In this document: positions 4,396 through 42,505 of the stretch, piece by piece
How positions within the stretch are numbered: the first letter of the stretch is position 1
Layout: every line of letters starts with the position of its first letter
IMG/VR virus record: IMGVR_UViG_2531839666_000032
DNA length: 43,524 bases
Source: a virus
Lineage: Duplodnaviria > Heunggongvirae > Uroviricota > Caudoviricetes
Reading direction: 5' to 3' (one strand)
Position numbers and translations under genes: made by a program
Notes under the pieces: generated by a model
Told to the model about the DNA's origin: nothing
The model's input: the letters and a program-made list of their open reading frames with translations, nothing else
Database searches by the model: none

Positions 4396-7797
<3,402 letters not shown>

Positions 7798-24049: not shown

Positions 24050-24343
24050 ATGAAAAAAATGTTGTTTTCTGCCGCTCTGGCAATGCTTATTACAGGATGT
24101 GCTCAACAGACGTTTACTGTTGGAAACAAACCGACAGCAGTAACACCAAAGGAAACCATCACCCATCATTTCTTCGTTTCGGGAATTGGACAGGAGAAAA
24201 CTGTTGATGCAGCCAAAATTTGTGGCGGCGCAGAAAATGTTGTTAAAACAGAAACCCAGCAAACATTCGTAAATGGATTTCTCGGTTTTATTACTTTAGG
24301 CATTTATACTCCGCTGGAAGCGCGTGTGTATTGCTCACAATAA
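24050..24343 (+). CDS. bor: Bor lipoprotein (serum-resistance type)
   Basis: 97 aa from MKKMLFSAALAMLITGCAQQTFTV with lipobox LITGC; AGGA Shine-Dalgarno upstream; opposite strand to the late genes as in lambda. Confidence 0.9.
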   Translation: MKKMLFSAALAMLITGCAQQTFTVGNKPTAVTPKETITHHFFVSGIGQEKTVDAAKICGGAENVVKTETQQTFVNGFLGFITLGIYTPLEARVYCSQ

Positions 24344-26133: not shown

Positions 26134-27231
26134 ATGAAAAAATTAACAGTGGCAATTTCTGCTGTAGCTGCATCAGTACTGATGGCGATGTCTGCTCAGG
26201 CAGCTGAAATTTATAATAAAGACAGTAACAAGCTGGATCTGTACGGAAAAGTTAATGCCAAGCACTACTTTTCCTCTAACGATGCAGATGATGGTGATAC
26301 TACTTATGTTCGTCTGGGCTTCAAAGGCGAAACCCAAATCAACGATCAGCTGACTGGTTTCGGTCAGTGGGAATATGAATTCAAAGGCAACCGCGCTGAA
26401 TCTCAAGGTTCCTCCAAAGACAAAACCCGTCTTGCATTTGCAGGCCTGAAATTCGGTGACTACGGCTCAATCGATTACGGCCGTAACTACGGTGTAGCAT
26501 ACGACATCGGTGCGTGGACTGACGTTCTGCCAGAATTCGGTGGCGATACCTGGACCCAAACAGATGTGTTCATGACTGGTCGCACCACTGGTGTTGCAAC
26601 CTATCGTAACAACGACTTCTTTGGTCTGGTTGATGGTCTGAACTTTGCTGCTCAGTACCAAGGCAAAAACGATCGTAGCGATTTCGATAACTACACCGAA
26701 GGTAACGGTGATGGCTTCGGTTTCTCTGCTACCTATGAATACGAAGGGTTCGGTATCGGTGCAACTTATGCGAAATCTGATCGTACCGACACTCAAGTTA
26801 ATGCAGGGAAAGTTCTTCCTGAAGTATTTGCTTCCGGTAAAAATGCAGAAGTTTGGGCCGCAGGTCTGAAATATGACGCTAACAACATTTACCTGGCCAC
26901 TACCTATTCTGAAACCCAGAATATGACTGTATTTGCTGATCACTTCGTTGCTAATAAAGCTCAAAACTTCGAAGCTGTTGCACAATATCAGTTCGATTTC
27001 GGTCTGCGTCCGTCCGTTGCTTACCTGCAATCTAAAGGTAAGGATCTTGGAGTATGGGGCGATCAGGACTTAGTCAAATATGTTGATGTAGGTGCAACCT
27101 ATTACTTCAACAAAAATATGTCTACTTTCGTTGATTACAAAATCAACCTGCTTGACAAAAATGACTTCACTAAAGCACTCGGTGTAAGCACTGATGACAT
27201 CGTTGCTGTAGGTCTGGTTTACCAGTTCTAA
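26134..27231 (+). CDS. nmpC: Phage-encoded OmpC/OmpF-type porin (NmpC / Lc type), apparently intact
   Basis: 365 aa, signal peptide [24 protein letters not shown]-terminal VGLVYQF; lies between Q and S on the strand opposite to the late operon, as nmpC does in DLP12. Confidence 0.9.
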
Positions 27232-27420: not shown

Positions 27421-27804
27421 TTAATTAGAGTTATTAACAACGATATCCATCTCTAACCGGATATCTAATGCCATTAACATCCCTTCAATTATGCCCTCAG
27501 CCTTCTGTAACCTTTTCCCGATATAACCATCAGAGCAGCAATGCTTACCTGCCAGTGACATGAATGTCATACCGACTACATAATAATCTACTAATAAATC
27601 GTGCAAATCGCTGTTGTTCTTTTTCAGACGGGCCATGCACCCGCAAATGATCATCGCGTCATCGTCACAACATTGCGGGCGAGATTTTACTTTTGAAGGA
27701 ATTAATCCCTTAAAACCGGCGGCAATGGACGACCAGGTCACATCTTCATGATTATTAGCCGCCCACGCTCCCCAACGCTCAAGAACCATCTGAATATCAC
27801 GCAT
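27421..27804 (-). CDS. Q: Late-gene antiterminator Q of the phage 21/82 (QuuD) type
   Basis: 127 aa from [62 protein letters not shown]; immediately upstream of the late region. Confidence 0.85.
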
Positions 27805-28030: not shown

Positions 28031-28389
28031 TCATTCCCCATTTCGGTGATGGTCAGTTCCAGCCTCCCACCTTTGGTAACAGGCATCTTCACAACGCGGT
28101 AATCAACGACCTGAGCATCATCCAGCCAGAAACCTGCTTTAGTGAGTGCGTCAAAAGCGGCTTTTTGCAGATTATCCAGGTCACGGCGACGGCGATCCGG
28201 CATGTGGCACTCAATGCGGATTTTCACAGGCATAGCCAGGCCGATATCCAGCATTGCGTTTTTAATGATTCGGGCGACGTTATCGCGGTATGCCTGCCCC
28301 TCTGCGCTGACGTGCGTGCGCCCGCGATTATGGCGGTAATAGCGATTATTGCTCGGAGGCCAGGGTAATGTGATACTGTAGGTATTCAC
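28027..28389 (-). CDS. rusA: Holliday junction resolvase RusA
   Basis: 120 aa [120 protein letters not shown]. Confidence 0.95.
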
Positions 28390-28677
28390 GCCTTAATAAC
28401 CCCCTCTTTCAGCCAGATAACCTGTGTTCTCGCCATACCTTCCAGCGCGCATTCTTTTGCATATGCAGCATCGACAAAATGTGTGCGGCGGTCGATTTCG
28501 TCGTGGCAGGCAGAACATGCAATGGTGGCAATCAGGTCTGGCGGTTTGATACCGGTACCGCACAATCCAGCCAGCCGGATATGTGCCAGTACAGACGTTT
28601 CAGAATTGCCATTACATACGCCAGGGATTCTTACCTGGCATTCCCGACCACGCGCTGCTTTTCTCAAATCAGCCATG
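28386..28677 (-). CDS. ybcO: YbcO-like Cys-rich protein (DUF1364, putative nuclease)
   Basis: 96 aa from [64 protein letters not shown]; translationally coupled to ninE and rusA. Confidence 0.8.
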
Positions 28678-28839
28678 ATTCCTCCTTGCTGCCAGTCGCA
28701 ACCATTTTTTATCAACCAGGCTAGCGGTATATCCGAGCAGTGTTGGTATTTCGGATGGCTTCGGCTCAGGCTTACGCTTACGACGATTTGATACTCTGTA
28801 GATGTGTCCGTTCATGACACGAATAAGCGGTGTAGCCAT
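28669..28839 (-). CDS. ninE: NinE protein
   Basis: 56-aa [59 protein letters not shown] found by hand; ATGA overlap with the ninB stop. Confidence 0.75.
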   Translation of the reverse strand: MATPLIRVMNGHIYRVSNRRKRKPEPKPSEIPTLLGYTASLVDKKWLRLAARRNHG

Positions 28840-29294
28840 TACGCCTCCTGCTTGTCACGGAGCAGCTGGAACTCGCAGCTCTGCGGAATAGTCAGGTGGC
28901 AGCCAATATTCACCGCCCAGGCTTCAACCTTACACAGGAAGACATACATCTCTCCGATATCAAGATCGGAGGTATGGCGTAACGACTGGATAGTGGTGAT
29001 ATCACCGGTTACGACATCAACCAGGTCTTTGGTTTCATAACCGAGATATGTGTGTTTGAGAGCATCTTTTACCCAAGCTGGAGTGGCGAACGTTTTACCC
29101 CTGTTGATGAGGTATTCACTGATTTCGCTGTACCACATGTGGCTGAGTGCATTCTGGGAAAGACTGCGTTTCTCACGCCACGGTTTAAGCACCATGCGAA
29201 AGCATTTGCCCTCCTCCAGATAAGGCTGGATCTGCCGACCGATAGCGGTGAAGTTACCGCGATGTAATTTGATGCCATCTTGTGGGAGATTCAC
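28839..29294 (-). CDS. ninB: NinB / YbcN recombination-associated protein, GTG start
   Basis: 151 aa (GTG)[61 protein letters not shown]. Confidence 0.85.
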
Positions 29295-29392
29295 GCTTCA
29301 CCTCCGCAGAGGTCAAACGCTGGATACAATATATCGCAGGTGCATTTCTGCATCTGTGGAGGGAGAAGAGAGTTTGGATTGTGTGTGCGCAT
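29291..29392 (-). CDS. ylcH: Small protein YlcH
   Basis: 33-aa [36 protein letters not shown] found by hand; overlaps the ninB start. Confidence 0.5.
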
Positions 29393-29523
29393 AAACGTCC
29401 CCGTTTAGCGCAGAAGTCACCGGAGTTGTTCAGGCTCCGATGACATGATTATGGCGAGTTGATTATCGCAAATCAAAGGTTTGAACCGCCCCGGTTTTCC
29501 GGGAGAGTGTTTTATCTGTGAAC

Positions 29524-30423
29524 TCAGGCTGCCAGACCACCATTTCCGATGGAAGCGTAATATGCCTTTTCCGCTTCTGCCGGCGGGATATGACCCAGTC
29601 GTTCCAGCAACCGTCGGTTATTGTACCAGTCCACCCACGTCAGTGTGGCCAGTTCCACTTCGGCGCGGTTTTTCCAGCTCTTACGATGTATCACCTCCGC
29701 TTTATAAAGTCCGTTGATGCTCTCCGCCATCGCGTTGTCATATGAGTCGCCTGTGCTGCCGGTTGACGCCAGCAACTCTGCATCCTTAAGCCGCTGAGTG
29801 TATGCCAGCGACACATATTGTGACCCCTTATCTGAGTGATGGATGGTGCCCGACGGGCGACGGGCCCACAGCGCCTGCTCCAGTGCATCCAGCACGAACG
29901 TCGTTTTCATCGACGATGAGACCCGCCAGCCCACAATGACGCCGGCGAACACATCGATGATGAACGCCACGTAAGCGAAGCCCTGCCAGGTGCTCACATA
30001 CGTGAAGTCAGCCACCCACAGCTGGTCGGGGCGTTCTGCCACGAACTGGCGGTTCACCCGGTCACCCGCAGCGGCTTCTTTCCGGCTGACTGTGGTGCGG
30101 ACCTTTTTACCCCGGCGCACACCGGCAAGCCCCATCACCTTCATCAGCCGTTCTACTGTGCACCTGGCCACGGTCACCCCCTCACGCAACAACTGGCGCC
30201 AGACCTTGCGCACACCGTACACGCTGTGGTTTTCATCGTACACGCGCTGTATCTCCGGCTTCAGCAGGTCATCACGCTGTGCCCGCTGACTGCGTTTATC
30301 CGGATGCCGTTGATGCGCACGATGCCGGTAATACGTTGACGGGGCGACAGCCAGCTCGTGGCATACCGGTCCGACCCCGTGCGCACCACGCAGGGTATCC
30401 ACCAGAGGCGCTATTTTTTCCAC
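29524..30423 (-). CDS. IS629 OrfB, DDE integrase-type transposase catalytic subunit
   Basis: 299-aa ORF, ...[34 protein letters not shown]...[10 protein letters not shown]...; overlaps orfA in the -1 frame, consistent with the IS3-family frameshift. Confidence 0.9.
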
Positions 30424-30737
30424 AGGCGGTCGAACTCCGCCTTCGCAAAATACGCGGAAGCCTGGCGCAGGATATCGTTGCTGCGGCGCAGTTCGCGGTT
30501 TTCACGCTCCAGTTCCTTCAGACGCTGACGTTCAGTGGTGCTCAGTCCGCCGTCACCTGCACCGGCATCGCGCTCATACTGACGCAGCCAGGTACGCAGG
30601 GTCTCAGGCGTACAGCCGATTTTAGGGGCGATGGAGCTGATGGCCGCCCACTGCGAGTCATAGTCATTCTGGCTTTCGATAACCATACGAACGGCCCGCT
30701 GACGGACCTCAGGGGAAAAGCGCGTATTTTTAGTCAT
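30411..30737 (-). CDS. IS629 OrfA, helix-turn-helix transposase subunit
   Basis: 108 aa [64 protein letters not shown]...[36 protein letters not shown]. Confidence 0.9.
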
Positions 30738-30794
30738 CCTGTTTACCTCTCTCTCAAGGAGTTTAGTCTCCAGGATTCCCGGGGCGATTCAGTT

Positions 30795-31151
30795 TTAATT
30801 GTGCTTTATTCCTTCAAGCGTTGCCTTCATACCAACCAAAGAAATGTTTAGCTCTCCAACTTTCTCAGGGCTATATAATTCAGAATGAAGCCAATATTCT
30901 GATTTATCTAAACATCTTTTAGCCAGCTCTCGATCAAAGTCTACGACTTGGGAAGACGCTTCATACCAAAGCCTATAAAGTTTTTCTTCTTCGTTTGGGT
31001 TATTAGGCTCACCACGTTTTAATTTTTCAGTATATAAAATTGTTGAACAAATCGCAGGAGTTAATCCAGTGATTGCCCTCTGCCGCAGATCGGATTTGTT
31101 TGTTATCCACCCCAACAGACGATCTCCCATCCATGTGATAATTGTATCCAT
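30795..31151 (-). CDS. Hypothetical protein (118 aa), AT-rich cargo gene
   Basis: ORF MDTIITWMGDRLLGWITNKSDLRQRAITGLTPAICSTILYTEKLKRGEPNNPNEEEKLYRLWYEAS with AAGAAGGG Shine-Dalgarno; no family recognised; stop codon is 3 bp from the IS629 end. Confidence 0.55.
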   Translation of the reverse strand: MDTIITWMGDRLLGWITNKSDLRQRAITGLTPAICSTILYTEKLKRGEPNNPNEEEKLYRLWYEASSQVVDFDRELAKRCLDKSEYWLHSELYSPEKVGELNISLVGMKATLEGIKHN

Positions 31152-31612
31152 GCTTTAGCCCTTCTTAGTAAATAGTGTGTAGGGCGACTGAAGGACCGAG
31201 TTTATGCTTTTTCGCATTGCTTTCAGTTAGTACACCGGTATCGCACCGGAAACAATCCTACGGCAAATTGGTTGTCTGACCTCTCGGTTTTTCGTGCATT
31301 AACCGATACCCACTACAGTCTCGGCGAAAGCTGCACACCCCCAGGGTGTACTGGTAGCACTCGGCACAGCCTAGCACGCCACTTTCTTCTCACTATCCAG
31401 TCTAATTTTATCCCCTAGTCAGACACTCAGATGTAGTGCTCCGCAGCGGCATGCGGGGGAATACAAAAACTCGGACAAAATTGGGCCCTCCTTTTTGAAT
31501 CACTCGCGGGGATGTAGTTATTAATACATGGAAAAAGATCTGTTTTCAAATCCAACATTATATGGTTTCAATACCACGGGGTGGCTATGTGTTTCTCATT
31601 GTTAATTGGAAT

Positions 31613-31936
31613 CTACTGTAATCGATCCGAACGTAAATGCGGCAAAACTCGACTCCACTTATCATCCTGCCACGGCCGGAATTTTACATGTGCCGTTTCT
31701 CTGGCAAGGATTGCCTGTGCCTTATTGAGTATCTGGGGATATTCTTGCTCGATAGAAGTGAAGCGACCAGCTTCACGATGCTCCGCAACCTGAAGAAGAG
31801 GAGTAACGTTCTGGTAGGTAATTAACATCACATTCCCTGCTCGCCATAACCAGGCGAGTGTGCAAAGTTCGTTATCAGTGAATTGTTTTGTGATTGGGGA
31901 TTGTTGAACTGCTAGAACGAGAACGCCAGCATCCAT
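31613..31936 (-). CDS. Hypothetical protein (107 aa)
   Basis: ORF MDAGVLVLAVQQSPITKQFTDNELCTLAWLWRAGNVMLITYQNVTPLLQVAEHREAGRF with AGGGA Shine-Dalgarno; no family recognised. Confidence 0.5.
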   Translation of the reverse strand: MDAGVLVLAVQQSPITKQFTDNELCTLAWLWRAGNVMLITYQNVTPLLQVAEHREAGRFTSIEQEYPQILNKAQAILARETAHVKFRPWQDDKWSRVLPHLRSDRLQ

Positions 31937-32047
31937 TGGCAGTCCCTATAGTAAAACCATAGCTCAGGACGCTTCGTTCAGGATAGATAATTTTATTGTA
32001 CTTACCTAACTTTCTTACTATAGCACGGTTGAAAAAGTGATTATTAC

Positions 32048-33574
32048 TCAAAAATAAACCTCACCATCAACCATATATTTGAGAGCACTTATCGCCTGCT
32101 GGGCGGATATTACTTTCATTAAAGGATAGTGTTTAAAAACAATGCCATTCATAAAATAGATATCACAGCTTTTATTATCCGTATTAATTATGATTTTTTC
32201 GAATGTTTTATAGGCAAGTGTACGGCATAACTCTCGTCCATTTTTACTGGTTAAGTCAATAGCATAAAAATCACTGAATGAATTTACACCTTTACTCTTC
32301 AAAGTTTTCAATGATACCGAAGCCCTTCTTAATTCCTTATCTAATAGTCTTATTTTCTCTGCTATAGCGGTAACTTCAGGCGCGACAGACAATGCAACGA
32401 TTAAATTATTAATTTTCATCTGAAGCTCAATAATTTTTAACTCTAAAGTTTCATTAGCATCTTTCTTGTTTTCAACTGGTTGAATTTTGCTACAATTAAA
32501 AAGCAATTCATTAATGATATTATAATCAACCAAATCTCTTTTTATTGATGGCCTGTCACATCGATGTAATCTTCTCATCGGACAAACATAATAGCCATGC
32601 AAACTTCCAGATACCGCATGAACAATCATGGTATTACCACAAGCCTCACACTTCATAACTGTTCGAAGTAGATTTATTAGCATAGGATTCTTGCTACTAT
32701 TGCTAATACCAAAAGGTGCCAACCGAATTTCCTGTACAGCGTAAAACAAATCATCTGATATGACTCTGGGATAATAGCCAGCGATTTCACTTATCCCTTT
32801 CCCTCTTGCACGATATGAAGGTACGCATATACCTATCAGAGCTTTATTCGCTAATAATTTTTCAATTACAGAAGGTCCCCATGCACTTTCTTTTCCTGAG
32901 AAATTCTTTACAGCATGATCATTTAAATACTTGGCTATTGCATTCAATGAGCGCCTTTCCATCCTGAGTTTAAAAATTAGCTCAATAGTTTTCACCCTGT
33001 CGGGGTCTGGAACAAAAGCCGTTCTTTTGTCATCTAAGGAGAGCCATCTCGGACAAGACGCCGTCATAATCGTACCTGATTCCAGTGCATCCTGCCGTTT
33101 TTTCTTCCATGATAATTTAACCCGACTTGACTTTATCTCGCTTTCTTCATTTGCCCTTTGTGCTATAAGTATGGCTTTTATTAATGAATATGGCTCATTC
33201 AAAGAGTCAATATTATAGACTGTATTGTCGCAAAGAGTTATAACATCAATACCGTGATTCAAAATTAATTTCAGACGTTCAATCGCTTCACCGACTTTTT
33301 CTCTTGAAAGTCTGTCCAGACTTTCAACTAACAATGTAGTTCCTGGCAATATATAACCATGCTCTATAGCATCTAAAAATTCCGAAAAAGCTCCTGATTG
33401 TGCATGCTTTCCTTTGAATGCACTTAATCCTAAATCTTCATATGTTATGGTATCAAGATAATAATCACTATTTACCTTTAACCATTCAGCAATAAGTCTT
33501 CTCTGTCGGTTTAATGAGTCACCAGACATCTGACCTGGTGATGAAAATCGCATATATGCTATGGCTTTTTTCAT
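32048..33574 (-). CDS. ybcK: Large serine recombinase (resolvase-type N-terminal domain, recombinase domain, Cys-rich zinc ribbon), YbcK-like
   Basis: 508 aa MKKAIAYMRFSSPGQMSGDSLNRQRRLIAEW...; Cys cluster CEACGNTMIVH...YYVCPMRRLHRC; AT-rich. Confidence 0.85.
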   Translation of the reverse strand: MKKAIAYMRFSSPGQMSGDSLNRQRRLIAEWLKVNSDYYLDTITYEDLGLSAFKGKHAQSGAFSEFLDAIEHGYILPGTTLLVESLDRLSREKVGEAIERLKLILNHGIDVITLCDNTVYNIDSLNEPYSLIKAILIAQRANEESEIKSSRVKLSWKKKRQDALESGTIMTASCPRWLSLDDKRTAFVPDPDRVKTIELIFKLRMERRSLNAIAKYLNDHAVKNFSGKESAWGPSVIEKLLANKALIGICVPSYRARGKGISEIAGYYPRVISDDLFYAVQEIRLAPFGISNSSKNPMLINLLRTVMKCEACGNTMIVHAVSGSLHGYYVCPMRRLHRCDRPSIKRDLVDYNIINELLFNCSKIQPVENKKDANETLELKIIELQMKINNLIVALSVAPEVTAIAEKIRLLDKELRRASVSLKTLKSKGVNSFSDFYAIDLTSKNGRELCRTLAYKTFEKIIINTDNKSCDIYFMNGIVFKHYPLMKVISAQQAISALKYMVDGEVYF

Positions 33575-33756
33575 GGTGACACCTGCTAACGTATGCTTTT
33601 ATAAACCTTAGTGGTGGGATATAATTTTTGTTTAATTTTTATTTAAAAAAACAATTAAGGTCACATTATCTTGAATATACAACAATAATCGTATTGCAAT
33701 TTTCTTACGCCATAATCTTGAAAGCACAAAAGAACACATAAAAAAATAAAGACATT

Positions 33757-33799
33757 AACAAAAAGCATAAAACGAGGCTCATATAAATATAAGAGCCTC
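33757..33799 (-). terminator. Rho-independent terminator after emrE
   Basis: GAGGCTC / GAGCCTC stem with a 12-nt AT loop, followed on the minus strand by GTTTTATGCTTTTT. Confidence 0.6.
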
Positions 33800-33830
33800 C
33801 ATATTTTAGTCGTTTAGAAACAAATTATTT

Positions 33831-34163
33831 TTAATGTGGTGTGCTTCGTGACAATAGATTAATAACCAACACACCGGCACAAATCAACATCATGCCTATA
33901 ATGGCTGGCAGGTCCAGCCGTTGGCCGAAAAGTCCCCATGACAGTAAGCTAATCAGGACAATACCGACTCCTGACCAGATAGCATAAGCAATCCCTGTAG
34001 GAATATAAGCCAGCGTCTGAGCTAATAACCAGAATGATGCACAATAACAAATAATTGTACCAACAGATGGCCATAACCGTGTAAAACCTTCTGAAAACTT
34101 CATTAAGGTTGTACCAATGACCTCTGCAAGTATTGCACCACCAAGATAAATATAAGGGTTCAT
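33831..34163 (-). CDS. emrE: Small multidrug resistance (SMR) efflux transporter EmrE
   Basis: 110 aa from MNPYIYLGGAILAEVIGTTLMKFSEGFTRLWPSVGTIICYCASFWLLAQTLAYIPTGIAYAIWSGVGIVLISLLSWG; four TM helices; the ORF track extends 18 codons upstream. Confidence 0.9.
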   Translation of the reverse strand: MNPYIYLGGAILAEVIGTTLMKFSEGFTRLWPSVGTIICYCASFWLLAQTLAYIPTGIAYAIWSGVGIVLISLLSWGLFGQRLDLPAIIGMMLICAGVLVINLLSRSTPH

Positions 34164-34230
34164 AGCATATTCTTTCCTGTTCAAACTGGAGAGAATTGTA
34201 CTACAGTTTGAACTCAACTCACCTGTTTCA

Positions 34231-34533
34231 TCATTGTGTACCCATTGATGTTCTTTTATATACCCTCAATACCCGTTTCATCGCGGCACTCTGGCGACAC
34301 TCCTTAAAAATCAGATTCGTGCTCACCTTTCCTTCCCGTTCTTCTCTGGTAGCGAACCGGTAATACACCGTTCGCCAGACCTTACCATCAACGACCAGGA
34401 TTCCTGCCCGCGCCATTTTAGCCGCAGCCTGATTTATGCTGGTTACGGTTGCGCCTGTTACCGCGGCAACGTCCTGTGCACAGAAGCTCTTATGCGTCCC
34501 CAGGTAATGAATAATTGCCTCTTTGCCCGTCAT
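34231..34533 (-). CDS. ren: Ren protein
   Basis: 100 aa MTGKEAIIHYLGTHKSFCAQDVAAVTGATVTSINQAAAKMARAGILVVDGKVWRTVYYRFATREEREGK. Confidence 0.85.
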   Translation of the reverse strand: MTGKEAIIHYLGTHKSFCAQDVAAVTGATVTSINQAAAKMARAGILVVDGKVWRTVYYRFATREEREGKVSTNLIFKECRQSAAMKRVLRVYKRTSMGTQ

Positions 34534-35231
34534 ACACTTGCTCCTTTCAGTCCGAACTTAGCTTTAATTTCTGCGATCTTCGCCAGAGCCTGTGCACGAT
34601 TTAGAGGTCTACCGCCCATAACAGGAAGTTGTTTTACTGGTTCAGGTATCGTCTCACCACGGTTAATTCGCGCTGTCATACAGGTCAGTTCATCGGCAGC
34701 CTTGCGCCGTAATTCCGCGTCAGTCAGCGCATTGGCCCGCATGTTCTGGTACAAGTTGGTAACCAACCAGTAATGCGCGTTCGATTTCCACGGATAAGAC
34801 TCTGCATCCGGATACAGGCCACGCTTCCGGCAATACTCGTAAACCATATCAACCAGCTCGCTGACGTTTGGCAGCCCGGCGTTAACAGATGCTTCTTCCC
34901 GGCACCAGGCGACAAACTGCCCGGGTGATGGCAGGAATGGTCGATTCTGCCGACGGGCTACGCGCATTCCAGCGTTAACCTGTTCCATTGTGGTGATCCC
35001 GTTTTCCCGGAAAGCCAGAACCCACTGGCGGCGGATTTCGTTCAGTTCATTCTGGTCACGGTTAGCCAGGCTCGCCGGGAAAGTTGCCAGTAACTGGCTG
35101 AACACACCGTTGATGATCTGCGCTACCTGCTGTACCTGTGGCTTTTCGTCGTACTGTTCCGGCATGTTGTTGGCGATCCGGCGCATCTGCTCACAGTCAA
35201 AGTTAACCATCTGTGCGGCGATGTTTTTCAT
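34530..35231 (-). CDS. P: Replication protein P (DnaB helicase loader), lambda type
   Basis: 233 aa MKNIAAQMVNFDCEQMRRIANNMPEQYDEKPQVQQVAQIINGVFSQLLATFPASLANRDQNELNEIRRQWVLAFRENGITTMEQVNAGMRVARRQNRPFLPSPGQFVAWCREEA. Confidence 0.95.
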   Translation of the reverse strand: MKNIAAQMVNFDCEQMRRIANNMPEQYDEKPQVQQVAQIINGVFSQLLATFPASLANRDQNELNEIRRQWVLAFRENGITTMEQVNAGMRVARRQNRPFLPSPGQFVAWCREEASVNAGLPNVSELVDMVYEYCRKRGLYPDAESYPWKSNAHYWLVTNLYQNMRANALTDAELRRKAADELTCMTARINRGETIPEPVKQLPVMGGRPLNRAQALAKIAEIKAKFGLKGASV

Positions 35232-36157
35232 AGCTCCACCCCGTAAATCCAGTCAGTGTTCGTCAGGTCGAGTTTTGGTTTGCCGGCTGTCACGCCAGCC
35301 TGTTGCTTGTTTCGGTTGATTTCGAGCTGGGTCCACTTGTCGCGGAGTTTGGCCGGACTTAGCACGTTACCGGACCAGAAGTTGTCCTGGCATGCCCAGC
35401 GGAACAGCACGCACATGTCGCGGTGGTTACGTCCGTCACGTTCACGCATCAGGCGGATATCGTTAGCCCACCCTGCAAAATTCGGTTTTCTGGCTGATGG
35501 CGCGATGGTCTTCACCATGTCAAACATCCACTCTGCGGCGGTCAGGTCTTCTGCTGTCCCCCACTTGCTGCCGCTCTGAATTGCAGCATCCGGTTTCACC
35601 ACAGGAAGATCGTTTTCTGGTTGGTCAGAGGATTCGCCAGAATTCTCGGACGAAAAAGGTTTTATATTGTCTTTTGTTAGTTTGTCTTTTGTGTTTACCT
35701 GATTCGGGTAAACGCCTTTACCTGATTTGGGTAAACTTTTTTTACCTGATTCAGGTAAATTTACCTCTTTCAGGTAAACTTTATTTTTCTTACCTGATTC
35801 GGGTAATGTTGACCATTCACTGACCACATTATTAATGCCGGTATTCCGCCCGCTCTGAATAAAAATCCCACGCTTTACCAGAACACTTTTTGCAGCAGAA
35901 CACTTGTGCGGCAATATCCCGGTTAATTCGGAAAGTTGCTCGTTGCTAACCCAATCCAGTTTTTTATTAAAGCCATATGTTTTGCGCATGACAGCCAGAA
36001 AGACCAGAAGCTGGTGCTGTGTTAATCCGGCCAGCATCACAGCTTCCAGCAACTCATTTGCAATGCGCGTATAACCATCATCGAGATCTGCCACGCGCGG
36101 CTCCTTTTGTGCCGCATCCGGCACTGGAAAATTGAATATCTCAGCAGTGTTTGCCAT
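35228..36157 (-). CDS. O: Replication initiator O, chimeric: non-lambda iteron-binding N-terminal domain, lambda-like P-interacting C-terminal domain
   Basis: Start chosen at MANTAEIFNFPVPDAAQKEPRVADLDDGY (GGAGG Shine-Dalgarno); the ORF track extends to 36247; C-terminus ...FAGWANDIRLMRERDGRNHRDMCVLFRWACQDNFWSGNVLSPAKLRDKWTQLEINRNKQQAGVTAGKPKLDLTNTDWIYGVEL. Confidence 0.85.
   Translation of the reverse strand: MANTAEIFNFPVPDAAQKEPRVADLDDGYTRIANELLEAVMLAGLTQHQLLVFLAVMRKTYGFNKKLDWVSNEQLSELTGILPHKCSAAKSVLVKRGIFIQSGRNTGINNVVSEWSTLPESGKKNKVYLKEVNLPESGKKSLPKSGKGVYPNQVNTKDKLTKDNIKPFSSENSGESSDQPENDLPVVKPDAAIQSGSKWGTAEDLTAAEWMFDMVKTIAPSARKPNFAGWANDIRLMRERDGRNHRDMCVLFRWACQDNFWSGNVLSPAKLRDKWTQLEINRNKQQAGVTAGKPKLDLTNTDWIYGVEL
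35696..35806. repeat. Replication origin: five 17-bp iterons TTACC-N7-GGTAA inside the O gene, with an adjacent AT-rich tract at 35640-35695
   Basis: Iterons start at 35696, 35718, 35742, 35761 and 35790; they encode the LPESGKK-like repeats in O. Confidence 0.8.
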
Positions 36158-36243
36158 AATTCCTCCCGCAATGAGTGTGTTACGATTTGCACCTGAAAGT
36201 CGGTTCTGTTCCAGCAGACCGGCTTTCGCCATTTCTGAACCTG

Positions 36244-36783
36244 TCATATCGCCCCCAGCATGGTAGTAACCATCGCCATCAATGGACCAGCCAGATCTGG
36301 GTCCACACGAAACATCGACACAATACCTTCACTAATTTCCTTCAGTTTCTGGTGGCGTGGTGCGTTGAGAATGACAGCCTGTTTTGCCTCACTGAGTTCC
36401 TTTTCCATTTCAGCCAACCTAGCCATGAAGCTATCCTGCTCAACCAGGTAACCGCGATATTCCAGCGGTAGTACCGCCAGAATTGCCGGGGTCAGTTCAC
36501 GCACGTTATTTCGGTATTTTTCAGAATCGAATTTGTTATCGAGGAAGCGGAACAGCTTCTGGCGTGCACGGCTGACATCATCAGGGAAATCGATGGTGCC
36601 GCCGCCCTGCTCCCGATACTCATTCACAATGAGTGTGGCAACGACATCCTGATTATCTACAGCCGACCAGGCGCGGACGGCATCACGGATTTTTTCGTGG
36701 CCTGGCACCTGTTTTGTTTGAGAACGATTTATCACCGCAGTCGGGCTAAATCCGCTAGTCTGTTGGTATGTAAGTGGTTGCAT
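36244..36783 (-). CDS. CII-like lysogeny regulator (CP76-type), putative
   Basis: 179-aa ORF MQPLTYQQTSGFSPTAVINRSQTKQVPGHEKIRDAVRAWSA between cro and O; family assignment is from memory and weak. Confidence 0.5.
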   Translation of the reverse strand: MQPLTYQQTSGFSPTAVINRSQTKQVPGHEKIRDAVRAWSAVDNQDVVATLIVNEYREQGGGTIDFPDDVSRARQKLFRFLDNKFDSEKYRNNVRELTPAILAVLPLEYRGYLVEQDSFMARLAEMEKELSEAKQAVILNAPRHQKLKEISEGIVSMFRVDPDLAGPLMAMVTTMLGAI

Positions 36784-36852
36784 AATTGACTCCTTTAGTT
36801 TGAATTGACTGTTAAGTTGATTGCTTATTGTTAAAGAGCGTGAAATGGAAAT

Positions 36853-37083
36853 TTAAGCTGCGTTCTTTTCGGTGTGTGGAAACAACTTCGGAAGATCCGG
36901 GCGAATCTGGTATGCCTTCACTACTCCACCAGTAGCCGTAACAATGCTGCCGACATGTTCAGGGGATACCTTTGCTTTGTTGTGAAGCCACTTATAGACG
37001 GCCTGCTGTGAAACTTCGCAAGCAGCGCCCAGTTTCTTTTGTGAACCAACGATATTGATCGCTGTTTTGATAGCTGGGTTCAT
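36853..37083 (-). CDS. cro: Cro-like helix-turn-helix repressor
   Basis: 76 aa MNPAIKTAINIVGSQKKLGAACEVSQQAVYKWLHNKAKVSPEHVGSIVTATGGVVKAYQIRPDLP, divergent from cI; GGAGG Shine-Dalgarno. Confidence 0.8.
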   Translation of the reverse strand: MNPAIKTAINIVGSQKKLGAACEVSQQAVYKWLHNKAKVSPEHVGSIVTATGGVVKAYQIRPDLPKLFPHTEKNAA

Positions 37084-37187
37084 AACAACCTCCGTGGTTA
37101 ATTTGAATCAAGATTAAAACTATGGTTGTTTTTAGTCAACAACCATTTTCGTTTGATGAAATAAAACCTTGGTTGTACATTTGGACT
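37084..37187. promoter_or_regulatory. Immunity control region oR with divergent promoters: candidate pR (-35 TTGACT 37134-37139, -10 TAATCT 37111-37116, minus strand) and pRM (-35 TTGATG 37153-37158, -10 TACATT 37176-37181, plus strand), plus operator palindrome ATGGTTGTT-N7-AACAACCAT at 37122-37146
   Basis: Hexamers with 17-nt spacers and ACAAC/GTTGT half-sites read directly; pRM would give a leaderless cI mRNA as in lambda. Confidence 0.45.
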
Positions 37188-37877
37188 ATGAAAACAACAC
37201 TCTCAGAAAGACTTAAAGAAGCCAGATTAGCGCGAGGCCTTACACAAAAGGCGCTTGGGGATTTGGTCGGGGTTAGCCAGGCTGCTATTCAGAAAATCGA
37301 AACAGGGAAAGCTAATCAAACAACTAAAATCGTGGAGATCGCGAACGCTTTGGGTGTGCGCGCAGAATGGTTATCTTCTGGCGTTGGAAATATGTCAGAC
37401 AGTACAGTGCAACCAATACAATCAACTGTCAGCCATTCCAAATACTTCAAGATTGACGTTCTTGATATAGAAGTCAGTGCTGGGCCGGGAGTCATCAACC
37501 GTGAGTTTGTAGAAGTTCTACGCTCGGTTGAGTACTCGTTTGACGATGCTCGTCACATGTTCGATGGTAGGAAGGCGGAAAATATCCGCATCATTAACGT
37601 GCGTGGTGACAGCATGTCAGGAACGATCGAACCAGGTGATCTGCTGTTCGTTGATATCACAGTTAAATCTTTCGACGGTGATGGTATCTATGCGTTTCTG
37701 TACGACGACACAGCCCATGTAAAGCGCCTGCAAATGATGAAGGATAAGCTGCTGGTCATCTCTGATAACAAAAGCTACTCACCGTGGGACCCGATCGAGA
37801 AAGACGAGATGAACCGGGTGTTCATCTTCGGTAAGGTTATTGGGAGCATGCCGCAGACATATAGGAAGCATGGGTAG
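37188..37877 (+). CDS. cI: CI-type prophage repressor (N-terminal HTH, C-terminal LexA-like S24 autopeptidase domain)
   Basis: 229 aa from MKTTLSERLKEARLARGLTQKALGDLVGVSQAAIQKIETGKANQTTKIVEIANALGVRAEWL; C-terminal ...VRGDSMSGTIEPGDLLFVD...HVKRL; the ORF track extends 22 codons upstream across the operator. Confidence 0.85.
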   Translation: MKTTLSERLKEARLARGLTQKALGDLVGVSQAAIQKIETGKANQTTKIVEIANALGVRAEWLSSGVGNMSDSTVQPIQSTVSHSKYFKIDVLDIEVSAGPGVINREFVEVLRSVEYSFDDARHMFDGRKAENIRIINVRGDSMSGTIEPGDLLFVDITVKSFDGDGIYAFLYDDTAHVKRLQMMKDKLLVISDNKSYSPWDPIEKDEMNRVFIFGKVIGSMPQTYRKHG

Positions 37878-37998
37878 TACCAATTAAAAATTATCAACTG
37901 GGCATTGTGCTCATTCAGTAAAGAACTAATTCCTATCTTTGCTCTAGGTAGTAATATTAAGCCACCGCAATAATATCTTTACCTAACGGCGTAAGAAT

Positions 37999-38025
37999 CC
38001 CGGTCACCGTGCCGGGTTTTCTTTT
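37999..38025 (+). terminator. Rho-independent terminator after cI
   Basis: CCCGG-TCACCGTG-CCGGG hairpin followed by TTTTCTTTT. Confidence 0.6.
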
Positions 38026-38119
38026 GCCCTCCCCTCATCACACACACCGTTAAAAAAACCACCATAACCTCGCTTCAGTTATCGCTATGCGATTCAAGTC
38101 ACAAAATAAATCCATCCTA

Positions 38120-38196
38120 AATACAACCAGTTATATCTAAAACAACCAATAAAACAACTTTTGTTGTTGACGATAAAACAACTATAGTTTTAAATA
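38120..38196 (+). promoter_or_regulatory. oL/pL candidate: -35 TTGACG 38167-38172, -10 TTAAAT 38190-38195, overlapped by operator palindrome AACAAC-TTTT-GTTGTT at 38153-38168 and further AACAAC half-sites
   Basis: Read directly; same half-site family as in oR. Confidence 0.4.
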
Positions 38197-38388
38197 AGTT
38201 CATCGCAACAACACAACGATACGGCAACTACCTGATTCACCGTTGCGATGACCGCTTAGATCCGCAGTTTGAATTTCAGCAGGCTTCGGGGAGTGCGAGG
38301 GGTGAAACGGACGCGTGAACGTCGGTGTGACCAGCTGAAATTAACTCAACATTTCATACCTTAGTCGCTTCAACGAGGCGGCTTAGTT

Positions 38389-38679
38389 ATGACAACCGGC
38401 GGCCATCCACCGCCTGAATACGCGCAGAAGTCTCTATATGTTCAGCAGCCCAGCTTACGGGCAGGAGTTTTTATGGTTCATCAACATTATGGAACGCAGA
38501 CCGTTAATCGAGGTGCGGTCATGCCAGGAATGCTGGTCAAACACAAAGATGGTACCTGGACTGCATCAGCTAATTTACGCGGACGGCTTTATCTGCATCG
38601 CGGCATCGAGCGCACTTATACCCGTGATTTGCTCGTGGAAGTTTTTCTCGACGGACGCGGTAACGGCCTGAATCACTAA
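38389..38679 (+). CDS. Hypothetical protein (96 aa), first gene of the pL operon, in the position lambda kil occupies upstream of gam
   Basis: [73 protein letters not shown]; no family recognised; an alternative 77-aa frame overlaps. Confidence 0.4.
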
Positions 38680-38754
38680 TCCCCTTTCCTGTTTTCCTAA
38701 TCAGCCTGGCATTTCGCGGGCGATATTTTCACAGCCATTTTCAGGAGGTCAGCC

Positions 38755-39051
38755 ATGAACGCTTATTACATTCAGGATCGTCTTGAGGCTCAGAGCTGGG
38801 CGCGTCACTACCAGCAGATCGCCCGTGAAGAGAAAGAGGCAGAACTGGCAGACGACATGGAAAAAGGCCTGCCCCAGCACCTGTTTGAATCGCTATGCAT
38901 CGATCATTTGCAACGCCACGGGGCCAGCAAAAAAGCCATTACCCGTGCGTTTGATGACGATGTTGAGTTTCAGGAGCGCATGGCAGAACACATCCAGTAC
39001 ATGGTTGAAACCATTGCTCACCACCAGGTTGATATTGATTCAGAGGTATAA
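38755..39051 (+). CDS. gam: Gam, RecBCD inhibitor
   Basis: 98 aa [98 protein letters not shown]. Confidence 0.95.
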
Positions 39052-39056
39052 AACGG

Positions 39057-39842
39057 ATGAGTACAGCACTCGCAACGCTGGCAGGGAAGCTGGCTGAACG
39101 TGTCGGCATGGATTCTGTCGACCCACAGGAACTGATCACCACTCTTCGCCAGACGGCATTTAAAGGTGATGCCAGCGATGCGCAGTTCATCGCATTGTTG
39201 ATCGTCGCCAACCAGTACGGCCTTAATCCGTGGACGAAAGAAATTTACGCCTTCCCTGATAAGCAGAACGGCATCGTTCCGGTGGTGGGCGTTGATGGCT
39301 GGTCCCGCATCATCAATGAAAACCAGCAGTTTGATGGCATGGACTTTGAGCAGGACAATGAATCCTGTACATGCCGGATTTACCGCAAGGACCGTAATCA
39401 TCCGATCTGCGTTACCGAATGGATGGATGAATGCCGCCGCGAACCATTCAAAACTCGCGAAGGCAGAGAAATCACGGGGCCGTGGCAGTCGCATCCCAAA
39501 CGGATGTTACGGCATAAAGCCATGATTCAGTGTGCCCGTCTGGCCTTCGGATTTGCTGGTATCTATGACAAGGATGAAGCCGAGCGCATTGTCGAAAATA
39601 CTGCATACACTGCAGAACGTCAGCCAGAACGCGACATCACTCCGGTTAACGATGAAACCATGCAGGAGATTAACACTCTGCTGATCGCCCTGGATAAAAC
39701 ATGGGATGACGACTTATTGCCGCTCTGTTCCCAGATATTTCGCCGCGACATTCGCGCATCGTCAGAACTGACACAGGCCGAAGCAGTGAAAGCTCTTGGA
39801 TTCCTGAAACAGAAAGCCACTGAGCAGAAGGTGGCAGCATGA
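39057..39842 (+). CDS. bet: Bet (Red-beta) single-strand annealing protein
   Basis: 261 aa [89 protein letters not shown]. Confidence 0.95.
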
Positions 39843-40519
39843 CACCGGACATTATCCTGCAGCGTACCGGGATCGACGTGAGAGCTGTCGAACAGGGGGA
39901 TGATGCATGGCACAAATTACGGCTCGGCGTCATCACCGCTTCAGAAGTTCACAACGTGATAGCAAAGCCCCGCTCAGGAAAGAAGTGGCCTGACATGAAA
40001 ATGTCCTACTTCCACACCCTGCTGGCTGAGGTTTGCACCGGTGTGGCTCCGGAAGTTAATGCTAAGGCGCTGGCCTGGGGAAAACAGTACGAGAACGACG
40101 CCAGAACCCTGTTTGAATTCACTTCCGGCGTGAATGTTACTGAATCCCCGATCATCTATCGCGACGAAAGTATGCGCACCGCCTGCTCTCCCGATGGTTT
40201 ATGCAGTGACGGCAACGGCCTTGAACTGAAATGCCCGTTTACCTCCCGGGATTTCATGAAGTTCCGGCTCGGTGGTTTCGAGGCCATAAAATCGGCTTAC
40301 ATGGCCCAGGTGCAGTACAGCATGTGGGTGACGCGAAAAGATGCCTGGTACTTTGCCAACTATGACCCGCGTATGAAGCGTGAAGGCCTGCATTATGTCG
40401 TGATTGAGCGGAATGAAAAGTACATGGCGAATTTTGACGAGATGGTGCCGGAGTTCATCGAAAAAATGGACGTGGCACTGGCTGAAATTGGTTTTGTATT
40501 TGGGGAGCAATGGCGATGA
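39839..40519 (+). CDS. exo: Exo (Red-alpha) 5'-3' exonuclease
   Basis: 226 aa [94 protein letters not shown]. Confidence 0.95.
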
Positions 40520-40677
40520 AGCATCCTCACGATAATATCCGGGTAGGCGCGATCACTTTCATCTACTCCGTTACAAAGCGAGGCTGGGCATTTCCCGGCC
40601 TTTCTGTTATCAGAAATCCACTGAAAGCACAGCGGCTGGCTGAGGCGATAAATAATAAACGGGGGCTGTATGACTGA
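40510..40677 (+). CDS. orf60a-like small protein
   Basis: 55-aa [58 protein letters not shown] found by hand; overlaps the exo stop and the methyltransferase start. Confidence 0.6.
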
Positions 40678-41227
40678 TTTCACCGGAAGCAATACTCCTG
40701 CCGAACATCGCGACAGCTGGCGCACACCACCAGAGATTTTTGCTGCGCTTAATGCAGAGTTCGTTTTTCAACTTGATGCTGCCGCCAGCGAAAAAAACCG
40801 ACTATGTCGGCTTTTTATCTCACAGGAGCAGAACACATTAACCACTTCATGGCCTGAAGCAATGGGATATGCCTCTGGTTATGTCTGGTTGAATCCACCA
40901 TACAGCAATATTTCCCCTTTTGTGAAAAAGGCAGCCACTGAAAACAAATTCAGTAGTGTGGGATGTGTAATGTTATTGCCTGCTGACACATCTGTCGGAT
41001 GGTTTCATGAAGCGATACAAACCGCCAGTGAGGTCAGATTCATCACGGCAGGACGACTGGCATTTATTAACCCACTCACTGAGAAACCCGTCAGTGGAAA
41101 TAATAAAGGCTCGATGCTCATTATCTGGCACCCATACCCCCGTACACACTGCCACTTTACGACCGTTGATCGTGGAGAGTTGATGGCGTTCGGCTCAAGG
41201 ATTCTTGCCCGTCGGGAGGCTGCATGA
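40670..41227 (+). CDS. Orphan phage DNA N6-adenine methyltransferase
   Basis: 185 aa with catalytic motif IV NPPY (VWLNPPYSNISPFV); no adjacent restriction endonuclease gene. Confidence 0.8.
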   Translation: MTDFTGSNTPAEHRDSWRTPPEIFAALNAEFVFQLDAAASEKNRLCRLFISQEQNTLTTSWPEAMGYASGYVWLNPPYSNISPFVKKAATENKFSSVGCVMLLPADTSVGWFHEAIQTASEVRFITAGRLAFINPLTEKPVSGNNKGSMLIIWHPYPRTHCHFTTVDRGELMAFGSRILARREAA

Positions 41228-41307
41228 CAACCACGGAATGCATTTTTCTGGCAGCGGGCTTCATATTCTGTGTGCTTATGCTTGCCGACATGGGACTTGT
41301 TCAATGA
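41224..41307 (+). CDS. Putative 27-aa single-pass membrane micro-protein
   Basis: ORF MTTTECIFLAAGFIFCVLMLADMGLVQ found by hand; its ATG overlaps the methyltransferase stop (ATGA) and its stop overlaps the next ATG. Confidence 0.3.
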   Translation: MTTTECIFLAAGFIFCVLMLADMGLVQ

Positions 41308-41519
41308 CACATCAGCAGGAAAACGCCCTTCGCAGCATTGCCCGTCAGGCTAATTCTGAAATCAAAAAAGCCAGACAGCAGTTTCCGGATAAAAACGTCG
41401 ATGACATTTGCCGTAGCGTACTTAAGAAGCACCGCGAAACGGTAACGCTGATGGGATTCACACCGACTCATTTAAGCCTGGCGATCGGCATGTTAAACGG
41501 CGTCTTTAAGGAACGGTGA
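41304..41519 (+). CDS. Hypothetical protein (71 aa)
   Basis: MTHQQENALRSIARQANSEIKKARQQFPDKNVDDICRSVLKKHRETVTLMGFTPTHLSLAIGMLNGVFKER; followed by a terminator. Confidence 0.5.
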   Translation: MTHQQENALRSIARQANSEIKKARQQFPDKNVDDICRSVLKKHRETVTLMGFTPTHLSLAIGMLNGVFKER

Positions 41520-41540
41520 ACATGAAAAGCAAAATCATCA

Positions 41541-41563
41541 GGGAGCTACAGGCTCCTTTTTTA
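41541..41563 (+). terminator. Rho-independent terminator
   Basis: GGAGC-TACAG-GCTCC hairpin followed by TTTTTT. Confidence 0.55.
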
Positions 41564-41617
41564 TTGTTCGCATTCATCCTCAAGCGTATTAACCAACAAT
41601 TCAGGGATTAATGGAAG

Positions 41618-41836
41618 ATGGCAGACATCATTGATTCAGCATCAGAAATCGAAGAATTACAGCGCAATACAGCAATAAAAATGCGTCGTCAGAACTACCA
41701 GACTGTATCCGCAACTCATTGTTGTGAGTGTGGCGATCCGATAGATGAGCGAAGACGCCTGGCTGTTCAGGGTTGTCGGACTTGTGCAAGTTGCCAGGAG
41801 GAGATCGAACTTAAGAACAAACAATGGGGACTGTGA
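41618..41836 (+). CDS. TraR/DksA-family C4 zinc-finger protein (lambda orf73-like)
   Basis: 72 aa MADIIDSASEIEELQRNTAIKMRRQNYQTVSATHCCECGDPIDERRRLAVQGCRTCASCQEEIELKNKQWGL; CxxC...CxxC. Confidence 0.75.
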   Translation: MADIIDSASEIEELQRNTAIKMRRQNYQTVSATHCCECGDPIDERRRLAVQGCRTCASCQEEIELKNKQWGL

Positions 41837-41883
41837 TGGCCTCAAAGCAGCAAATTTCAACATCGTCCAACTGAGGTGTAAAA

Positions 41884-42162
41884 ATGTTCAGAATCATTTT
41901 TCCTAACACCTGGTACGTCGACCACCACGGCACTCCCTGCAAAATCCTGCGTTCTACCCACAACAAAGTTCACTACATCCGAAAAGGCAGAACATGTATC
42001 GCCAGCATGTTCCGCTTTAATCATGACTTTGAACCTGTGAATAAAGCTGATGCAGATCGGATAGCAGAAGAGATCGAAACGGCAGAACACATTAAGAAGT
42101 TACGTGACATGCGTTCAAAAAGCAGAGGTAACCATGGAATCATACAGCCTCACACTCGATGA
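41884..42162 (+). CDS. Hypothetical protein (92 aa)
   Basis: ORF MFRIIFPNTWYVDHHGTPCKILRSTHNKVHYIRKGRTCIASMFRFNHDFEPVNKADADRIAEEIETAEHIKKLRDMRSK with GAGGTG Shine-Dalgarno. Confidence 0.5.
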   Translation: MFRIIFPNTWYVDHHGTPCKILRSTHNKVHYIRKGRTCIASMFRFNHDFEPVNKADADRIAEEIETAEHIKKLRDMRSKSRGNHGIIQPHTR

Positions 42163-42505
42163 GGCCTGTCAGTTTCTTAAGATATCCAGACCAACCGCCA
42201 CCAACTGGATACGAACAGGCCGCCTACAGGCAACACGTAAAGATCCAACCAAGCCAAAATCTCCTTACCTCACAACACGGCAAGCCTGCATTGCGGCGCT
42301 TCAGTCTCCGCTGCATACTGTCCAGGTGAGCGCGGGTGATGGCATAACAGAGGAAAGAAAATGTCACTCTTCCGCAGAAATGAAATATGGTATGCCTCGT
42401 ATTCGCTCCCGGGCGGGAAACGAATTAAGGAATCTCTTGGCACAAAGGACAAGCGGCAAGCTCAGGAGTTGCACGACAAGCGAAAAGCAGAACTCTGGCG
42501 AGTAG
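42134..42505 (+). CDS. xis: Excisionase-like protein (AlpA/Xis-type HTH); the frame runs about 145 nt into int
   Basis: [38 protein letters not shown]...; position just upstream of int; true C-terminus uncertain. Confidence 0.5.

Follow-up and report, generated by a model that had tools for sequence, protein, structure and literature searches.

The 1310-bp insertion upstream of the Q gene of this lambdoid prophage is a complete, recently inserted IS3-family element, placed by ordinary transposition. The sole consequence of its presence that is demonstrated by comparison between genomes is evolutionary, as it forms the end-point of an 11.7-kb deletion that removed the whole early region. The explanation that best accounts for the observations as a whole, and which is probably correct, is that an intact IS629-like insertion had only a small immediate effect on Q, and later acted as a deletion end-point. 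The comparisons show that an intact and recently transposed copy, built exactly like IS629 but approximately 16% diverged from it, entered an intergenic spacer of a DLP12-type prophage beside argU by ordinary transposition, without breaking a reading frame. Transcripts reading through the element would gain 1.3 kb, and should meet neither a terminator nor a Rho-loading site that can be recognised in the direction of the operon, with the absence of such signals suggesting that Q expression and phage yield would at first be little affected. The later consequence is the use of the element as a deletion end-point, seen in one of four genomes, where 11.7 kb is gone and a cryptic remnant similar to the DLP12 of K-12 is left. 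IS insertions of this sort in a prophage are routine and well known, the present one is already annotated in public genomes, and its significance beyond correct annotation is small.

Structure and insertion site of the element

The window, meaning the whole 43,524-nucleotide stretch of DNA that was analysed, contains a lambdoid prophage at the DLP12 site, beside tRNA-Arg (argU) and fimZ. The PGAP annotation includes a full set of head, tail, lysis, Q, nin, replication, immunity, recombination and int genes, with pseudogene calls limited to ylcJ and a short helix-turn-helix fragment, such that the prophage is otherwise complete by this annotation. All genes from the cro-like gene (position 37083) to quuD (position 27421) form an unbroken string on the minus strand, beginning with the cro-like gene (of the YdaS type), a YdaT-domain gene, O, P, ren, emrE, ylcJ and ybcK, and continuing with a P22AR_C fragment, the gene for a 118-aa protein, the element, ylcH, ybcN, ninE, ybcO, rusA, ylcG and quuD. 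The protein encoded by the gene preceding the element had no Pfam match, and the exact sequence was found on at least 1000 contigs.

A sequence-only reading of this locus had placed the element 3 bp after the stop codon of the 118-aa gene and about 90 bp before ylcH, co-directional with the operon. These positions were corroborated by the annotated coordinates (Table 1), and in the PGAP annotation the minus strand carries the transposase as well as every gene from cro to Q. The gene order that it gave downstream, ylcH-ninB-rusA-Q, also holds, except that the gene called ninB is ybcN; the match of its product to the Pfam NinB profile was only sub-threshold (22.2 bits against 23.8). The element occupies an intergenic spacer, and breaks no reading frame.

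Table 1. Window coordinates of the element, its flanking features and the interval lost from JNEC-KY202
Feature	Position	Strand	Basis or remark
Complete IS3-family insertion sequence, IS629-like	29482..30791	-	1310 bp; ends, flanking duplication and uninterrupted empty-site alleles
Left (transposase-proximal) terminal inverted repeat	30765..30791	-	TGAATCGCCCCGGGAATCCTGGAGAC... on the minus strand; 21/27 positions match the opposite end
Right (orfB-distal) terminal inverted repeat, at the end facing ylcH	29482..29508	-	
Target-site duplication GTT (AAC on the minus strand), ylcH-side copy	29479..29481		Empty sites have a single copy
Target-site duplication GTT, copy abutting the stop codon of the 118-aa gene	30792..30794		
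orfA, 108 aa, HTH_Tnp_1 domain	30411..30737	-	Pfam PF01527, E = 2.7e-13; 96/108 identical to IS629 OrfA
orfB frame, -1 relative to orfA	29524..30423	-	HTH_21 PF13276, E = 7.9e-20; rve (DDE) PF00665, E = 4.3e-26
Slippery heptamer AAAAAAT at the end of orfA	30413..30419	-	orfA terminates AAA AAA TAG at 30419..30411
ALIL frameshift-stimulating pseudoknot	30340..30456	-	Rfam RF01497; 95.3 bits against a gathering score of 50, E = 4.7e-24
Promoter-like site TTGATT-17-CATAAT	29448..29476	-	Promoter scan; 5 bp downstream of the element end
Inverted repeat with 10-bp arms, GTCATCGGAG-N9-CTCCGGTGAC, in the ylcH leader	29416..29444	-	Found once in the window; chance expectation 0
Intact 118-aa gene without assigned function, upstream neighbour	30795..31151	-	Stop codon at 30795-30797, 3 bp from the element
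ylcH homologue (orf33 of phage 82), 33 codons	29291..29392	-	Start 89 bp past the element; 27/33 identical to K-12 YlcH
ybcN, 151 aa (first read as ninB)	28839..29294	-	PGAP: DNA base-flipping protein YbcN
quuD, Q antiterminator, downstream of the element	27421..27804	-	PGAP; Pfam Phage_antitermQ, E = 9.7e-54
Interval missing in JNEC-KY202	30792..42528		11,737 bp, from the left end of the element into intD

The construction of the element is that of the IS3 family. Its termini read TGAACCGCCCCGG... and ...CCGGGGCGATTCA (that is, TGAACC...GATTCA), are complementary over 21 of the outermost 27 positions, and have the 5'-TG...CA-3' form typical of the family, with a 3-bp duplication where 3-4 bp would be expected. 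Between them lie overlapping orfA (helix-turn-helix) and orfB (DDE, rve) frames with -1 frameshifting signals, which PGAP joins in the public genomes as a 404-aa "IS3 family transposase, programmed frameshift" spanning 29524..30737. The rve match in OrfB covers the full profile, and the D, D and E motifs, including DNAMAES, are present and identical to those of IS629 in an alignment.

The precision of the insertion was assessed by joining 400 bp of each flank around a single GTT, and searching the resulting empty site against complete E. coli genomes. The site was uninterrupted in 148 of these genomes, at up to 99.8% identity, as well as in the isolated phages Turner and IdasGreatGrand. Alignment with EC931 and phage Turner showed the undisturbed sequence to be ...TTAAAAC followed by CTTTGATT..., with a single AAC, and therefore both the element boundaries and the duplication are exact. 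The closest IS-free version of the prophage region was that of strain CB7453 (93% coverage, 98.7% identity). The occupied site was itself found in four complete genomes, these being FHI_NMBU_11 from Norway, JNEC-KY174 and JNEC-KY202 from Japan, and CFIAFB20190167 from Canada, of which FHI_NMBU_11 and JNEC-KY174 match the window at 100%. An assembly artefact is ruled out by the identical junctions in these four independently assembled sequences.

The insertion site has a distinctive position within the mosaic structure of these phages. Homology between this prophage, the DLP12 of K-12 and phage 82 begins at TTTGATT (position 29477), 1 bp beyond the duplicated AAC, and therefore the element sits at a module junction. 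Upstream of 29477, the two types of cargo, ybcL-ybcM in one case and the P22AR_C fragment with the 118-aa gene in the other, are unrelated. The comparison thereby places the insertion no more than 5 bp from the boundary between the variable cargo and the conserved ylcH-ybcN-ninE-ybcO-rusA-ylcG-Q block.

A rarer relative of IS629

The sequence-only reading had called this insertion a complete 1310-bp IS629 with imperfect ends and a GTT duplication. The size, coordinates, ends and duplication all stand; it is the name that does not. Relative to the IS629 annotated by the depositors of BP-4795, the alignment of the element was gapless, with 1098 of 1310 positions identical (83.8%), leaving 212 that differ. 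At the protein level, the identities were 88.9% for OrfA (96/108) and 86.9% for OrfB (259/298). Copies of the same IS conventionally share roughly 90-95% or more of their nucleotides, and at least 95% of their amino acids, by the usage of ISfinder. The element shares with IS629 its length (1310 bp), its imperfect ends of approximately 25 bp and its 3-bp duplication, but lies below the identity expected of a copy. The recognised subtypes I-III of IS629 diverge by only 4-5%, and IS1203 and IS3411 are treated as isoforms (Rump et al., PMC3271280); when set against this range, an identity of 83.8% therefore makes the element a distinct IS629-like member of the IS3 family.

The distribution of matches in public sequences gives the same impression. 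Across 5,426 complete E. coli genomes, 7 records matched the element at 99% identity or above, with copies that were 100% identical, 25 at 95-99%, 34 at 90-95%, and 6,760 at 80-90%, the large group being the common copies of IS629. Hence the matches are split mainly between 32 records at 95% or above and the thousands at 80-90%, with 34 lying between them. Each of the 174 phage records matching the element fell in the 80-90% band, and the best 20 of these 174, which include BP-4795 records and Stx2a phages, were 83.8-84.0% identical. It is true that the resemblance to IS629, IS1203 and IS3411 extends to equal length, near-identical outer ends of the form TGAA(C/T)CGCCCCGG..., a 108-aa OrfA, an orfB frame of 298 codons, the AAAAAAT heptamer followed by the ALIL pseudoknot, the 3-bp duplication, and, as judged from three copies, a preference for prophage DNA. 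Nevertheless, these shared features of organisation sit alongside so many differing positions, and so uneven a distribution of identities, that it is scarcely credible that the element is IS629 proper, or one of its isoforms such as IS1203 and IS3411. Instead, by sequence comparison, the element is classified as a rarer IS629-like relative within the IS3 family, approximately 16% diverged from IS629 itself, which is found in thousands of records compared with the 7 at 99% or above for this element. Hence analyses of typing or copy number based on IS629 should exclude it.

No more specific name was found for the element. An exact look-up of OrfA and OrfB in a collection of 15 billion proteins returned only "transposase" or "IS3 family transposase", and the labels given to it in E. 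coli genomes, and in plasmids of Salmonella (IncHI1B) and E. coli, were no more specific. Nor was there a citrate-transposon context, a possible pointer to IS3411. Further copies of the element include ones 100% identical to it at other sites in FHI_NMBU_11 and DS26-1, flanked by their own 3-bp duplications (TAT and ATC), and others on Salmonella IncHI1B plasmids (99.3% identity) and E. coli plasmids (98.9%). To judge from the identical copies with their own duplications, the element looks active.

Transcription towards Q

Two opposing effects on Q could be envisaged for an IS at this position. The first is that the element is polar on delayed-early transcription driven by pR, which would lower the amount of Q produced upon induction and attenuate the prophage. 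Such polarity is well established for classical insertions, including those of IS2 in lambda and in the gal operon. The element does lie within the unbroken, co-directional string of genes from cro to Q, and approximately 900 nt of orfB would be translated only after frameshifting, making this mostly untranslated RNA. No recognisable N-like antiterminator gene was found between the cI-like gene and kil, meaning that read-through transcription may not be resistant to termination. Hence the orfB RNA could be exposed to Rho in a phage without a recognisable N gene.

The features of the element itself point the other way. A scan of 29482..30791 found no terminator-like hairpin on the minus strand. 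There was also no C-rich, G-poor window of 78 nt, of the type associated with Rho loading, within the element, where C/(G+1) reached a maximum of 1.23, compared with 1.9-2.75 in windows after cro and over ylcH. Polarity of the element on Q would therefore not be predicted from these signals. Rho-dependent polarity is in general poorly predictable from sequence.

Related phages provide a further comparison. PhiR34_1, for which the GenBank host is E. coli K-12 MG1655, has, to judge from annotation tables and BLAST hits, the same architecture and N-less layout, with a 100% identical immunity region, while Turner and IdasGreatGrand have the identical junction between the 118-aa gene and ylcH without the element. 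All three carry approximately 5 kb of cargo between ren and ylcH, such that, in IS-free phages of this type, transcripts from pR already cross a long stretch of genes including emrE and ybcK. The existence of these phages with the same architecture would argue against the element mattering much for transcription of Q, and they are the comparison phages for the question of polarity.

Precedents in other lambdoid phages are consistent with this view. IS629 insertions are the main source of diversity within types of Stx2a phage, and encapsidated DNA of IS629-bearing Stx2a phages, including one with IS629 in roi, was recovered after induction (PMC4587872); therefore such an insertion does not, alone, mean attenuation. 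These insertions in the prophages of O157:H7 resemble the present case in that a related element occupies genes or spacers of a lambdoid prophage, including roi and an intergenic region (PMC4587872). They differ in that the present element is only 84% identical to IS629, and is found at another site, in a phage related to DLP12 and phage 82 that lacks stx.

It had also been proposed that all transcription driven by pR must cross the element to reach Q. Any transcript from pR would indeed do so, but the idea that pR is the only route to Q is weakened, because a promoter-like site lies just downstream of the element. Both of its hexamers are conserved in the DLP12 of K-12, phage 82 and phage Turner, and are annotated in the phage 82 record (X92588) as a putative -35 and -10 ahead of orf33, which is ylcH; the site matches the consensus at 9 of 12 positions, a level reached by 16 sites in the region compared with 18.3 expected by chance. 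The same record labels the inverted repeat of the ylcH leader a "possible regulator-binding site", and no further copies of the repeat, such as might indicate a regulon, were found within the window. The insertion created none of these features: the promoter-like site, the repeat and ylcH all belong natively to the nin block, and are intact. Although the element end replaces the sequence upstream of approximately -41, this is unlikely to have removed a required conserved site, because the sequence there already varies between natural alleles. Hence, taken together, these observations make polarity on Q unlikely, albeit a possibility to be taken seriously.

The leader between the element and ylcH has further distinctive properties. 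This 97-nt sequence folds at -36.9 kcal/mol (z = -6.1), while the pL leader folds no better than shuffled sequence (z = -0.57), and searches with Rfam at permissive thresholds found nothing meaningful among known RNA elements in the ylcH leader or the pL and pR leaders. The ylcH gene is itself C-rich and G-poor.

The second potential effect is the converse, in which ylcH-ybcN-rusA-Q would receive transcription leaving the element, started at its transposase promoter or at a hybrid promoter formed by its right end, making expression of nin genes or Q independent of pR and the repressor. The transposase is co-directional with the downstream genes, and there is precedent in the same block: rusA is reported to be normally quiescent in K-12, and was activated there by the upstream insertions of IS2 and IS10 in the DLP12 alleles rus-1 and rus-2 (PMC1636454). 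These resemble the present insertion in placing an IS within the ylcH-to-Q block upstream of rusA, but differ in that they were selected for rusA activation, whereas the present element lies farther upstream, ahead of ylcH. Scanning for promoters gave no minus-strand candidate inside the element, nor any spanning the junction of its end with the flank, and a hybrid or outward promoter at the right end was rejected on the latter basis. Furthermore, transcripts leaving the element would meet the strongly folding leader before ylcH, and constitutive Q would be expected to activate the lysis genes, and thus be counter-selected, whereas four genomes from three countries retain the insertion. Read-out from the element is correspondingly improbable.

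A broader version of these ideas would be that an unnamed IS629-like element, positioned approximately 41 bp upstream of the presumed start site of the conserved promoter in the ylcH leader, rewires the control of Q in an N-less phage of the DLP12 type, either by read-out or through induction-coupled expression of the transposase. Were the latter true, the phage would both carry the element and trigger its transposition. This is more doubtful still than simple read-out. Instead, a small immediate effect on Q is the favoured interpretation.

From complete prophage to cryptic remnant

The demonstrable effect of the element is evident from the four genomes in which the site is occupied. In FHI_NMBU_11 and JNEC-KY174, the prophage contains this element alone. 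In CFIAFB20190167, it is accompanied by ISEc8 inside ybcO. In JNEC-KY202, the element and the ISEc8 insertion in ybcO are combined with a deletion flush with the element, the left end of which (...GGGGCGATTCA) abuts window position 42529, within intD. The genes lost are the cargo, ren, P, O, the cro-like and cI-like genes, kil, gam, bet, exo and the first 168 nt of int, with the deletion reaching codon 57 of the last. The product is a truncated int, followed by the IS, ylcH through to Q, and the lysis genes.

A deletion flush with an IS terminus is a classic signature of adjacent deletion mediated by an IS. The analysis covered the end-point of this deletion, and in principle the same structure could have been generated by recombination between two element copies instead of by intramolecular transposition. 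The proposal that the insertion marks a possibly attenuated prophage survives in an altered form. The element is associated with decay, through the flush deletion in JNEC-KY202 and therefore by a different mechanism from that envisaged, while the insertion on its own does not imply attenuation. Hence the series forms a clean natural example of the conversion of an apparently complete DLP12-type prophage into a cryptic remnant like that of K-12, the steps being the element alone, then ISEc8 in ybcO, then the 11.7-kb flush deletion.

Other prophages of the DLP12 type exhibit similar signs of decay. The remnant in JNEC-KY202 resembles the DLP12 of K-12 in that both have lost immunity and replication genes, and, as in the present prophage, IS elements occur in the ren-to-Q interval of other remnants of this type. 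The difference is that the prophage in the window is still complete, the element having caused no loss there as yet. In these remnants, the interval is interrupted by IS3 in renD in the DLP12 of K-12, by an IS3-family element beside a frameshifted ren pseudogene in VR50, by an IS3-family element in rusA in MS 196-1, and by IS3 between ybcO and rusA, along with copies of IS1, in EC931.

Signals and rearrangements around the insertion

Between the IS629-like element and ylcH lies a short leader in which a promoter-like site (TTGATT-17-CATAAT) is followed by an inverted repeat, unique in the window, whose arms are 10 bp long, then a second hairpin, and then ylcH itself. This arrangement is kept in K-12 DLP12, phage 82 and phage Turner, and the phage 82 record (X92588) labels it only with a putative promoter and a "possible regulator-binding site". 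The leader may be a control point for the nin and Q genes that is independent of pR.

The operon has been altered further in two of the strains sharing the insertion. Both CFIAFB20190167 and JNEC-KY202 carry an additional insertion sequence, ISEc8 of the IS66 family, within ybcO, between the IS629-like element and Q. As the ybcO fragments are of equal lengths in the two strains, this suggests they descend from a common ancestor nested inside the insertion-carrying lineage. JNEC-KY202 has additionally lost 11.7 kb, corresponding to window 30792..42528, such that intD (window position 42529) is joined straight onto the left, transposase-proximal end of the element (6229-6230 in the JNEC-KY202 locus, L014). 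The deletion took out the cargo genes; ren, P and O; both the cro-like and the cI-like gene; kil, gam, bet and exo; and the 5' end of int.

Positions of features in the window and in related loci
Feature	Position	Strand	Remark
iss/bor	window about 24050..24343	+	lysogenic conversion
Complete porin gene	window 26134..27231	+	lysogenic conversion
ISEc8 in ybcO	window ~28386..28676 (ybcO); CFIAFB20190167 locus (L015) 4387-7127; JNEC-KY202 locus (L014) 1372-4112		
ylcH	window 29291..29392	-	C-rich 33-codon ORF
ylcH leader	window 29416..29476	-	promoter-like site and inverted repeat; conserved
118-aa protein gene	window 30795..31151	-	without Pfam match
107-aa protein gene	window 31613..31936	-	C-terminal domain only of a P22 antirepressor-type protein
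Strongest C-rich, G-poor stretch of early operon	window 36750..36920	-	C/(G+1) up to 2.75
AACAAC/GTTGTT palindromes	window 37122..37146 and 38150..38195		
Identical element copies	FHI_NMBU_11 locus (L006) 2501-3810; DS26-1 locus (L007) 2501-3810		
Element copy on Salmonella plasmid p08-4425.1	L003 6001-7310		

Early operon and cargo genes

No N-like gene was found between the cI-like repressor and kil (window 37878..38472), where the sole ORF is an arginine-rich one of 31 codons with a TTG start (window 38269..38364). This N-less region had no Rfam match, and the folding of the pL leader was not unusually good. Since the region is 100% identical in PhiR34_1, for which MG1655 is the recorded host, this phage type appears to function without a recognisable N. 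Palindromes of the AACAAC/GTTGTT type, such as ATGGTTGTTTTTAGTCAACAACCAT, occur in two places, one in the gap separating the cI-like gene from the cro-like gene and the other downstream of cI; they resemble operators belonging to an immunity region of the Rac type (YdaS/YdaT). The stretch of the early operon that is most strongly C-rich and G-poor covers the cro-like gene's 3' end and reaches into the beginning of the YdaT-domain gene, at approximately the place of the Rho-dependent terminator tR1 in lambda.

The cargo differs from that of K-12 DLP12, which has ybcL-ybcM at this position, where the window instead encodes the 118-aa and 107-aa proteins. The exact sequence of the 118-aa protein was present on at least 1000 contigs. 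The porin gene and iss/bor are on the strand opposite to the late operon, and the porin gene is complete, whereas its K-12 counterpart, nmpC, is broken by IS5.

Element copies elsewhere

Prophage DNA was the location of all three examined copies, including that in the window, with both the other identical copy in FHI_NMBU_11 and that in DS26-1 lying in lambdoid prophages. One of these two has a DUF7380 gene on one side and a DUF4209 gene on the other, with hokD and a YdaT-family gene close by, and the second copy lies within a DUF1367 gene adjoining a DUF1364 (ybcO-like) gene. In Salmonella 1,4,[5],12:i:-, the element is carried, at 99.3% identity, by IncHI1B plasmids roughly 246 kb in size. 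In p08-4425.1, its neighbour on one side is a cluster of SAVED-domain/ThiF/MPN genes resembling an anti-phage signalling system, and on the other an EAL-domain gene adjoining tibA.
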